The translations under genes were made by a program, and so were the position numbers. The notes below the pieces were generated by a model. It was not told the origin of the DNA, made no database searches, and saw nothing but the letters and a program-made list of their open reading frames with translations. Of a stretch of 64,000 nucleotides of DNA, positions 41,837 through 42,791 are shown piece by piece. This DNA comes from a phage, in the sequence record PZ445554.1. One strand, 5' to 3'. Positions within the stretch are counted from its first letter, which is position 1. Each line of letters opens with the position of its first letter.

Positions 41837-41913
41837 TGGCCAGGGTGAAAGGATTCTAACCTTTAACCTGCGGTTTAGAGGACCGCTACTCTATACAATT
41901 GAGTTACACCCCG
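41837..41913 (-). tRNA. tRNA-Arg (anticodon UCU)
   Basis: Clean cloverleaf on minus strand, anticodon loop CCUCUAA, encoded CCA. Confidence 0.8.
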
Positions 41914-42039
41914 TAATTAGTTCACAGCAATACCTACTCCAACAATCAAGATGTCTTCACACGAAATTAAGAGAAGAGTGATCAGTTCAACCCCTATAAT
42001 CGCGTCAAGTAGATATTAATGTGACAACTGTCACAAGTT

Positions 42040-42114
42040 TGGCGGACGTGATAGGATTCGAACCTATAACCAATCGCTTAACAGGCGATCGCTCTGCCAT
42101 TGAGCTACACATCC
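42040..42114 (-). tRNA. tRNA-Asn (anticodon GUU)
   Basis: Cloverleaf GGAUGUG...GUCCGCCA, anticodon loop CUGUUAA, T-loop UUCGAAU. Confidence 0.75.
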
Positions 42115-42118
42115 AAAT

Positions 42119-42205
42119 TGGTGGGGAGTGGTGGAGTCGAACCACCCGAGTCGCAATGACAATGAATTTACAGTCCACACCGCTACCTCTACGGGATAAC
42201 TCCCC
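42119..42205 (-). tRNA. tRNA-Tyr (anticodon GUA), long variable arm
   Basis: Type II tRNA, anticodon loop CUGUAAA, overall layout like bacterial tRNA-Tyr. Confidence 0.7.
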
Positions 42206-42218
42206 CTAATTCGTAATT

Positions 42219-42293
42219 TGGTGACCCTGGGTGGAATTGAACCACCATCTGGCGATTATGAGTCGCTTGCTTGAACCTTCCAGCTACAGGGCC
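42219..42293 (-). tRNA. tRNA with anticodon CAU (Ile2 or Met)
   Basis: Acceptor GGCCCUG/CAGGGUC, anticodon loop CUCAUAA, encoded CCA. Confidence 0.6.
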
Positions 42294-42294
42294 T

Positions 42295-42370
42295 TGGTGC
42301 TGATTGACGGAATCGAACCGCCGACGTCCTCATTACAAGTGAGGTGCTCTACCTACTGAGCTAAATCAGC
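42295..42370 (-). tRNA. tRNA-Thr (anticodon UGU)
   Basis: Acceptor GCUGAUU/AAUCAGC, anticodon loop CUUGUAA. Confidence 0.8.
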
Positions 42371-42375
42371 AAAAC

Positions 42376-42465
42376 TGGCGGAGGCGATAGGATTTGAACC
42401 TATGAGTCGCCGGAGCGACTGCCGGTTTTCAAGACCGGTGCATTAAACCACTCTGCCACGCCTCC
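42376..42465 (-). tRNA. tRNA-Ser (anticodon UGA), long variable arm
   Basis: Acceptor GGAGGCG/CGCCUCC, anticodon loop CUUGAAA, 17-nt variable arm. Confidence 0.8.
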
Positions 42466-42467
42466 AG

Positions 42468-42541
42468 TCTCCGTGGCAGGATTTGAACCTACGACATTCT
42501 GCTCCCAAAGCAGACGCTCTACCAAACTGAGCTACACGGAG
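42468..42541 (-). tRNA. tRNA-Pro (anticodon UGG), CCA not encoded
   Basis: Acceptor CUCCGUG/CACGGAG, anticodon loop UUUGGGA. Confidence 0.75.
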
Positions 42542-42551
42542 TAAATTAAAT

Positions 42552-42625
42552 TGGAGCGGATAATGAGAATCGAACTCACATCATCAGATTGGAAGTCTGA
42601 GGTAATACCATTATACGATATCCGC
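42552..42625 (-). tRNA. tRNA-Gly (anticodon UCC)
   Basis: Acceptor GCGGAUA/UAUCCGC, anticodon loop CUUCCAA. Confidence 0.8.
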
Positions 42626-42630
42626 AAATT

Positions 42631-42717
42631 TGGTGCGAGAAGTGGGACTCGAACCCACAAGGAAATCATTCCGCAGCATTTTAAGTGCTGTGCCTTTACC
42701 AATTTGACCATTCTCGC
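42631..42717 (-). tRNA. tRNA-Leu (anticodon UAA), long variable arm
   Basis: Acceptor GCGAGAA/UUCUCGC, anticodon loop CUUAAAA. Confidence 0.8.
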
Positions 42718-42718
42718 G

Positions 42719-42791
42719 CTGGGAATAAAGGACTCGAACCTTTGCATCCTGGAATCAAAATCCAGTGCCTTACCAACTTGGCTAATTCCCA
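42719..42791 (-). tRNA. tRNA-Gln (anticodon UUG), CCA not encoded
   Basis: Acceptor UGGGAAU/AUUCCCA, anticodon loop UUUUGAU; abuts tRNA-Leu. Confidence 0.75.

Follow-up and report, generated by a model that had tools for sequence, protein, structure and literature searches.

A ten-tRNA cluster with tRNA-Tyr and tRNA-Asn in a T4-like phage: a segB-less variant of the T-even tRNA region

The phage sequence PZ445554.1, analyzed here as one stretch of 64,000 nucleotides (nt; hereafter the window), carries a cluster of ten transfer RNA (tRNA) genes at positions 41837-42791, all on the minus strand, and ARAGORN identified no others in the whole 64-kilobase (kb) window. In transcription order these are tRNA-Gln(UUG) (42718-42791), the class II tRNA-Leu(UAA) (42631-42717), tRNA-Gly(UCC) (42552-42625), tRNA-Pro(UGG) (42467-42541), the class II tRNA-Ser(UGA) (42376-42465), tRNA-Thr(UGU) (42295-42370), a tRNA with a CAU anticodon that is most likely tRNA-Ile2 (42219-42293), the class II tRNA-Tyr(GUA) (42119-42205), tRNA-Asn(GUU) (42040-42114) and a variant allele of tRNA-Arg(UCU), here termed Arg' (41837-41913). 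A preliminary description of this DNA had proposed ten minus-strand tRNAs in this order over the same interval, and the ARAGORN calls bear this out. Reading of the 3' ends likewise supported its statement that Gln and Pro, and only these among the ten, lack an encoded CCA; both Asn and Arg' have G73 in front of theirs. Within the packed array the genes are separated by 1-13 nt (1 nt between Gln and Leu, 2 nt between Pro and Ser), while Asn and Arg' are set apart by a spacer that had been noted as a gap of 125 base pairs (bp) and that we count as 126 nt (41914-42039), from the end of the Asn CCA to the start of Arg'.

Searches with Rfam revealed that nine of the ten genes exceed the gathering score of the tRNA model RF00005 (29 bits), with scores of 56.9-74.1 bits, Asn being the highest (74.1 bits) and Arg' reaching 59.3 bits, whereas Tyr gave no hit at the gathering score. 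A uridine at position 33 in a 7-nt anticodon loop and a T-loop of the UUCRANY type are found in nine of the tRNAs, the exception being Arg', with the anticodon loop CCUCUAA (C33) and the T-loop UUAGAAU (A56). The preliminary description had allowed that tRNAscan-SE might not score Tyr and Asn, or that these candidates might be known stable RNA species. The GenBank record of phage RB51, however, annotates a Tyr (86/87 identical to that of the window) and an Asn as tRNAs from tRNAscan-SE, and the homologues of the two T4 stable RNAs are separate genes, rnaD (species 2; 41169-41286, minus strand) and rnaC (species 1; 41024-41162, minus strand), which are 99.2% and 97.8% identical to their T4 counterparts, respectively. 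As both map downstream of Arg' and of an open reading frame (ORF) of 184 codons, ORF184, a misreading of species 1 and 2 as Tyr and Asn has nothing but location in the same region to recommend it, and we rule it out with near certainty.

Comparison with T4 (NC_000866) revealed the same flanks, with trna.2 upstream (96.2% identical) and the rnaD-rnaC-e.8 block downstream (e.8, 98.1% identical). The order in the window is Gln-Leu-Gly-Pro-Ser-Thr-CAU-Tyr-Asn-spacer-Arg-ORF184-rnaD-rnaC, followed by a terminator-like hairpin, and that in T4 is Gln-Leu-Gly-Pro-Ser-Thr-Ile-segB-Arg-rnaD-rnaC. The first seven tRNAs and Arg had been described as matching T4, which holds for their order but only in part for their sequences: Leu (87/87), Gly (74/74) and the body of Ser (87/87) are identical and Thr differs at one position (75/76), while Gln (65/73) and Pro (63/74) carry differences that lie in stems and keep pairing, those of Gln in the anticodon arm, and the CAU (48/72) and Arg (47/65) genes are different alleles, at approximately 67-72% identity. 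Ser is followed by UAA and Ile by UAU in T4, yet both encode CCA in the window. No match to SegB was found within the window using blastn or tblastn, and T4 in turn has neither Tyr, nor Asn, nor the spacer element, so that these two tRNAs are indeed additional relative to the eight of T4, as had been claimed. Because the CAU and Arg alleles diverge, the CCA status differs and SegB is absent, the segment from Thr to rnaD reads, at the sequence level, as an alternative cassette and not as the T4 cluster with two added genes. Farther downstream, the interval between e.6 and e.8 (40230-40406, minus strand) holds only a 58-amino acid (aa) ORF where T4 has the 111-aa e.7.

The count of eight tRNAs in T4 that the preliminary description set against this cluster is correct, but the contrast is not surprising, as T-even phages with seven to ten tRNAs have been tabulated: eight in T4, nine in T2, seven in T6, nine in RB51 and ten in RB3, RB14, RB18, RB26 and LZ2 (Petrov et al. 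2010, PMC2993671). The corresponding regions of T2L, RB1 and RB3 have been sequenced and lack segB, with tRNA-Met(CAU), Tyr, Asn and Arg present after the tRNAs shared with T4 and at the same genomic place (Brok-Volchanskaya et al. 2008, PMC2330249). The window agrees with this segB-less type in position, between trna.2 and the rnaD-rnaC-e.8 block, and in content, with CAU-Tyr-Asn-Arg in place of Ile-segB-Arg. Beyond what has been described for T2L, RB1 and RB3, which we compared by their published description, it has the 126-nt spacer, the variant Arg, and an ORF with a T5orf172 domain between Arg and rnaD.

Sequence comparisons were made with RB51, vB_EcoM_G29 (G29), T6 and 236Ecol005PP. In RB51, a different endonuclease gene lies between Gly and Ser and is followed by Ser-Thr-CAU-Tyr-Asn-Arg with no spacer. 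T6 shares an identical tRNA-Tyr and the downstream rnaD, rnaC and e.8, but its order is Gln-Leu-Gly-Thr-CAU-Tyr-segB-Arg, with CAU and Arg of the T4 type and without Pro, Ser or Asn. G29 represents the commonest Tequatrovirus type, which has eleven tRNAs ending in CAU-Tyr-Asn-spacer-His-Arg; it is identical to the window through Asn and the spacer element, and then has tRNA-His, another Arg allele and a 116-aa ORF where the window has Arg' and ORF184. 236Ecol005PP carries the same ten annotated tRNAs, the same Arg allele, ORF184, rnaD and rnaC. A 1.3-kb region of the window matched 924 phage records, nearly all of them T4-like coliphages, the best at 97% (Shigella phage TB004), and in 236Ecol005PP, UFV-AREG1, REP2/REP3, sutha and TB004 it is fully covered at 93-97% identity with point differences only. 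The arrangement recurs, with full-length matches of 93-97% and shared Arg and ORF184, in UFV-AREG1, REP2/3, sutha, LF82-9 and TB004; among others, UFV-AREG1 and REP2, which have Arg and ORF184 as in the window, carry tRNA annotation. The CAU-Tyr-Asn block is covered to at least 80% in 391 phage records, with approximately 530 matches at 95-99% identity, versus 126 phage records for the T4-type Ile-segB-Arg segment. Given the published tRNA counts (PMC2993671), the published segment (PMC2330249) and the GenBank annotations, the cluster is an ordinary, widely annotated variant of the T-even tRNA region that was already known. One annotation in a relative deserves comment: the 94-nt tRNA-Lys(ttt) of G29 (positions 3260-3353 of the G29 sequence; ARAGORN and GenBank) sits inside the rnaC homologue and is an annotation artefact that corresponds to the tRNA-like 3' portion of stable RNA species 1; ARAGORN made no such call in rnaC of the window (41024-41162).

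As tRNA-Tyr lies below the Rfam cut-off, we analyzed this candidate by several means. In a permissive scan the Rfam family that fitted it best was tRNA-Sec, with 30.9 bits where the cut-off is 47, and its minimum-free-energy fold is not a cloverleaf. Folded by hand, the gene has an acceptor stem GGGGAGU/ACUCCCC, an anticodon arm GUGGA-CUGUAAA-UUCAU, a long variable arm GUC-AUUGC-GAC, a T arm GGUGG-UUCGACU-CCACC, A73 and an encoded CCA. Its D region is atypical: the stem has 3 bp (CCG/CGG), and the connector that joins it to the acceptor stem is one nucleotide longer than usual. Thermodynamic folding was uninformative as a test of tRNA identity, as good tRNAs themselves had z-scores of -1.1 to -2.0. 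Covariation was examined in 11 sequences with the cloverleaf specified by hand; the homologues came from Tequatrovirus, Vequintavirus (FV3), Certrevirus (CR9), Felixounavirus (tootiki), the T5-like SP76, two Klebsiella phages, one IMG/VR contig and one E. coli plasmid of approximately 110 kb. The useful homologues were found by BLAST among GenBank phages, while in a generic tRNA-Tyr pattern scan of IMG/VR most hits were ordinary Tyr genes of the bacterial type and only three were close relatives. This revealed that 97% of the cells of the cloverleaf are paired and that both sides have changed in 15 of the 24 pairs, while none of 500 shuffles matched any of the five measures and slid partners paired at 42-59%. 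The only pair not maintained is the outermost pair of the D stem.

The Tyr gene is identical over 87/87 positions to the annotated tRNA-Tyr of T6 (MH550421) and over 86/87 to that of RB51, whose GenBank note reads 'predicted by tRNAscan-SE-1.23, conserved in RB14', and between Tequatrovirus and FV3, an unrelated rV5-like phage, it is conserved at approximately 96% identity. Taken together, the covariation and the identity to annotated T6 and RB51 genes indicate from sequence that Tyr is a genuine member of a widely conserved, phage-wide tRNA-Tyr lineage, to which that of the T5-like SP76, with the same atypical D-arm, also belongs. We considered whether Tyr, and possibly the Arg' allele, are instead decaying tRNA pseudogenes or tRNA-like RNAs, as might be suggested by the score of Tyr, its predicted fold, the labels 'tRNA-OTHER', 'Undet' or 'Val' that it bears in some GenBank records, the failure of ARAGORN to detect the versions in CC31 and dw-ec, and the C33 and A56 of Arg'. 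The maintained pairing, which no shuffle equalled, together with A73, the GUA anticodon, the long variable arm and the encoded CCA, argues otherwise, the identical T6 RNA has been detected and rescues infection (PMC13096335), and Arg' scores well with Rfam and recurs at 75/77 identity in a Dhakavirus. Decay is thus a very improbable account, and for Tyr it is largely refuted already. It appears instead that the atypical D-arm lowers covariance-model scores, and this same feature probably explains the inconsistent GenBank labels and the ARAGORN misses.

The CAU tRNA had been described as either Ile2 or Met. It is 48/72 identical to T4 tRNA-Ile, 74/75 to its G29 counterpart and 73/75 to that of Vequintavirus FV3, and it has the anticodon arm GCGACUCAUAAUCGC and the pairs C4-G69 and C5-G68. 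This arm and these pairs agree with what we take to be the sequence of E. coli ileX (tRNA-Ile2) and the determinants of TilS, and the gene is 57/76 identical to the presumed ileX sequence versus 50/77 to the presumed metT sequence. The records for RB51 and U115 label the gene Ile, and CAU tRNAs of T4-like phages have been reported to carry IleRS signatures (Nolan et al. 2006). Judged by these features, the gene most likely encodes a lysidine-type tRNA-Ile2 that would read AUA, and Met is the less favoured of the two alternatives. The Asn gene is identical to the G29 allele and 63/75 identical to the RB51 allele. The near-identity of the CAU (73/75) and Tyr genes between Tequatrovirus and FV3 indicates, at the level of sequence, that tRNA modules move across phage families.

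Upstream of the array, a match to a MotA-dependent middle promoter, TGCTTTA followed after 12 nt by the -10 hexamer TATTAT, was read from the sequence by pattern search at 42861-42885 (minus strand), directly after the stop codon of trna.2. It conforms to the consensus of TGCTTNA centred near -30 and 11-13 nt from TANNNT. The -10 hexamer ends approximately 70 nt upstream of Gln, so the predicted start lies approximately 60 nt upstream of the gene, which is the distance at which the preliminary description had placed a MotA-box promoter. The 109 nt upstream of Gln, including the promoter match, are identical to T4. Matches to TGCTTNA-N11-13-TANNNT number 20 in the window against 4.5 ± 2.3 expected, and many of these are probably real middle promoters; 14 of the 20 lie on the minus strand, the principal coding strand of the window. 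At the other end, a strong intrinsic-terminator-like hairpin of 10 bp, seven of them G-C, followed by a run of T (40950-40973, minus strand), lies after rnaC and would probably end the tRNA and stable-RNA transcription unit. By analogy with T4, early promoters upstream and the MotA-dependent middle promoter after trna.2 would give rise to one long precursor, or a few, spanning the array, and the tight 1-13 nt spacing fits the multi-tRNA precursors known from T4. The precursor would be cut by RNase P and 3' exonucleases of the host, the host CCA-adding enzyme would complete Gln and Pro, and charging would fall to host synthetases, while TilS would turn the CAU tRNA into a reader of AUA.

Downstream of the spacer, Arg' and ORF184 appear to form a module of their own. 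A uridine at tRNA position 33 is near-universal, and Arg' has C33 in its anticodon loop, together with A56 in the T-loop and a D-loop, AAUUGUAUA, that lacks GG; a tertiary U19-A56 pair is possible. The RB51-type Arg allele has the D- and T-loop features in common with Arg' but carries U33, and at least four Arg alleles (those of T4/T6, G29, RB51 and the window) are present in the T-even group at approximately 64-79% mutual identity. ORF184 (41261-41815, minus strand) encodes 184 aa with a T5orf172/MUG113 (GIY-YIG-related) domain that exceeds the Pfam cut-offs for both families (MUG113, 2.7e-09; T5orf172, 3.4e-06), and it has weaker matches to PHROG families labelled 'endonuclease' and 'homing endonuclease'. 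The ORF runs into the 5' end of rnaD, which encodes its last eight codons (NEKPGRYR) and the stop codon. The gene is rare in Tequatrovirus, with approximately 16 phage records at 90% identity or more versus approximately 390 with the CAU-Tyr-Asn block, and more distant relatives are found in the tRNA regions of T5-like phages and of Aeromonas and Klebsiella T4-like phages.

In Dhakavirus ESCO10, Arg' (75/77) and ORF184 (169/185 aa) adjoin and precede rnaD-like sequence, as in the window, and this linkage suggests a mobile endonuclease gene that carries a neighbouring tRNA allele with it. A patchy distribution at a fixed locus and co-converted flanks are both seen for ORF184, which on its sequence is probably a free-standing, homing-endonuclease-like mobile gene and a candidate nuclease. 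Homing endonucleases probably drive the exchange of cassettes at this locus, Ile-segB-Arg in T4 for CAU-Tyr-Asn-spacer-Arg'-ORF184 here; SegB has its preferred cleavage site in tRNA-Asn, and the Met-Tyr-Asn-Arg segment is overwritten by T4 (PMC2330249). The ESCO10 homologue of ORF184 is labelled 'head vertex protein' in GenBank. A sigma-70-like match (TTGAAA-17-TATAAT, 11/12; 41381-41409, minus strand) lies in the 3' part of ORF184, approximately 95 nt upstream of rnaD, and this putative promoter could drive rnaD-rnaC, which the ORF now separates from the tRNAs.

The eight anticodons of the T4 type all read NNA codons, which are more frequent in an AT-rich phage than in its host, whereas Tyr(GUA), Asn(GUU) and, in most relatives, His(GUG) read NAY boxes for which host tRNA is ample. 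Tyr and Asn would duplicate abundant host tRNAs, ones that serve two amino acids heavily used by the phage and that are also targets of host tRNA-cleaving defences. In the 78 ORFs of the window, Asn accounts for 6.0% of codons (AAT, 45.8 per thousand) and Tyr for 4.6% (TAT, 35.7 per thousand), AAT and TAT are three times as frequent as AAC and TAC, and the G+C content is 34.8%. In E. coli, Asn and Tyr make up about 3.9% and 2.8% of codon use, so that the phage figures are about 1.5 times those of E. coli. These numbers agree with a role of Tyr and Asn in translational supply alone, with UAU and AAU being much commoner in the AT-rich phage than in the host and no part in defence evasion. The host, however, carries several tRNA-Tyr and tRNA-Asn genes, T4 and many relatives manage without either phage copy, and a defence phenotype has been shown for the identical T6 Tyr (PMC13096335), so that we hold supply alone to be possible but doubtful.

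The defence in question is Septu, in which PtuAB cuts tRNA-Tyr within its variable arm (Chihara et al. 2026, PMC13096335). In that study, T6 tRNA-Tyr was seen to be expressed on Northern blots, plating of T6 on Septu was restored in a dosage-dependent manner by overexpression of tRNA-Tyr or by SegB-driven amplification, deletion of the T6 tRNA region sensitized the phage to Septu, and T4, which lacks Tyr, was unable to escape. The Tyr of the window is the same RNA as the one tested against PtuAB, at 87/87 positions. The same principle has been described for the tRNA-Tyr of T5 against retron-Eco7 (PMC11555353). For Asn, the PARIS nuclease AriB cleaves E. coli tRNA-Asn(GUU), a secondary target, at 40|41 beside the motif U36-A-A-U, and the tRNA-Asn of T5 contributes to rescue (PMC12409363). 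The Asn of the window reads U36-A-A-G39-C-G, which breaks the motif next to the AriB site and may confer resistance to AriB. T5 thus resembles the window in that phage copies of Tyr and Asn replace host tRNAs attacked by PtuAB or AriB (PMC11555353, PMC12409363) and in having T5orf172-domain genes among its tRNAs, but its more than 20 tRNAs lie in another genome context, its Tyr has a strong promoter of its own, and its tRNA-Tyr is reported to resist cleavage through a distinctive variable loop, whereas the T6-type Tyr is cleaved. Demand and defence both fit the data and are compatible explanations, not exclusive ones.

A third account holds that Tyr and Asn are passengers without selected function, co-converted by homing endonucleases such as SegB, the RB51 endonuclease and ORF184. 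In its favour are the breakpoints of at least five architectures (T4, T6, RB51, G29 and the window), which carry endonuclease genes, the four Arg alleles and two Asn alleles, and the documented SegB-driven exclusion of Met-Tyr-Asn-Arg (PMC2330249). Compensatory change nevertheless maintains the Tyr stems across distant phage lineages, Tyr and Asn occur together in unrelated phage clusters and on E. coli plasmids of approximately 110 kb with phage-like tRNA arrays, and the T6 Tyr has a published functional phenotype. We consequently judge the passenger account improbable. Within E. coli, the sequences that match Tyr-Asn best are not chromosomal genes but Asn-Tyr-Thr arrays on such plasmids (pEC881_2).

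Taken together, we consider it very likely that the locus is the segB-less, T2L/RB3-like tRNA region of a Tequatrovirus, with T4-like expression, a logic of demand and defence for Tyr and Asn, and endonuclease-driven cassette exchange. Several points weigh against parts of this reading. The pathway of expression, processing and charging is borrowed from T4; a literature search returned no usable paper that maps a middle promoter in front of the tRNA genes of T4. C33 and A56 could reduce the function of Arg'. The tRNA region has been described as non-essential in the laboratory (PMC2330249). A counter-defence role has been demonstrated for T6 Tyr only, and for Asn we extend it by inference. Furthermore, T6 tRNA-Tyr is itself cleaved by Septu, at C48 (PMC13096335), and the T6-type Tyr therefore works by amount and not by resistance.

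The spacer between Asn and Arg' is itself conserved. Just after Asn, a short hairpin (TGTGACA..TGTCACA; approximately 42020-42035, minus strand) precedes a structured element of approximately 95 nt (41924-42022, minus strand), for which a consensus fold of five versions predicts a three-way junction; its core, GGGGTTGAACTGATCACTCTTCTCTTAATTTCGTGTGAAG, is nearly invariant. The centre of the hairpin reads TGTGACA-GT-TGTCACA in the window versus TGTGACA-AC-TGTCACA in G29 (positions 2460-2475 of the G29 sequence), the dinucleotide being reverse-complemented as if flipped. At least 80% of the spacer is present in 352 phage records, and it is 80-88% identical in Klebsiella T4-like phages, Erwinia phage COW86c, Enterobacter phage SonariX (248 kb) and Vequintavirus W70. 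In the eight copies examined with tRNA context, W70 and the window type excepted, tRNA-His directly follows the element; in the window, homology to the His-bearing type ends at approximately 41923 and His is absent. Several of these phages share the 5' portion of this tRNA-His, and recent transfer may account for some of the conservation. Pairing is present in 94.8% of cells, with eight compensatory pairs in the outer helix and one hairpin, as scored on the same five distinct sequences from which the structure was derived; none of 500 shuffles was as good on four of five measures, and slid controls paired at 35-55%. Several G-U pairs are valid solely on the tRNA-sense strand.

Rfam gave no hit in 41914-42039 at E <= 10, which led us to reject a decayed tRNA, a ribozyme or another known RNA family, and local alignment scores to rnaC and rnaD fell within the range of shuffles, which marks the spacer as unrelated to either. 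A hammerhead, considered for a 'GAA' between two helices, was rejected by eye since the CUGANGA strand varies between copies, and a sigma-70 promoter was rejected for want of a match within the spacer. The spacer has no match in 5,426 E. coli genomes, which speaks against an antisense to a host gene or prophage, and an antisense small gene was discarded because it lacks a Shine-Dalgarno sequence and the G-U pairs fit the tRNA-sense strand only. A 22-codon antisense ORF (41935-42006, plus strand; MSSHEIKRRVISSTPIIASSRY), open at 16-24 codons in four lineages and without a ribosome-binding site, is probably a by-product of sequence conservation. The most likely reading of these comparisons is that the spacer gives rise to a stable processed RNA. 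More tentatively, and with less than even confidence, we suggest that it may represent an undescribed phage RNA family of approximately 95 nt, with a three-way junction and a near-invariant 40-nt core, that would be released from tRNA precursors, that normally accompanies tRNA-His and that was orphaned here by invasion of the T5orf172 gene and the C33 Arg module.

The cluster as such adds nothing new, as T-even phages with ten tRNAs, the Tyr/Asn segment and an anti-Septu tRNA-Tyr have all been published. What changes is how it should be viewed: as an alternative cassette shuffled by endonucleases and not as T4 with two insertions, with a tRNA-Tyr that a covariance model rejects but that belongs to a genuine, conserved lineage with an atypical D-arm, and with a conserved structured element in what had been taken for a gap between Asn and Arg, which may merit a study of its own. 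The residual novelty lies in this element and in the module of C33 Arg and T5orf172 gene. For phage therapy and host range, the presence of Tyr and Asn predicts that phages of this type would perform better than T4 on hosts that cleave tRNA-Tyr or tRNA-Asn.

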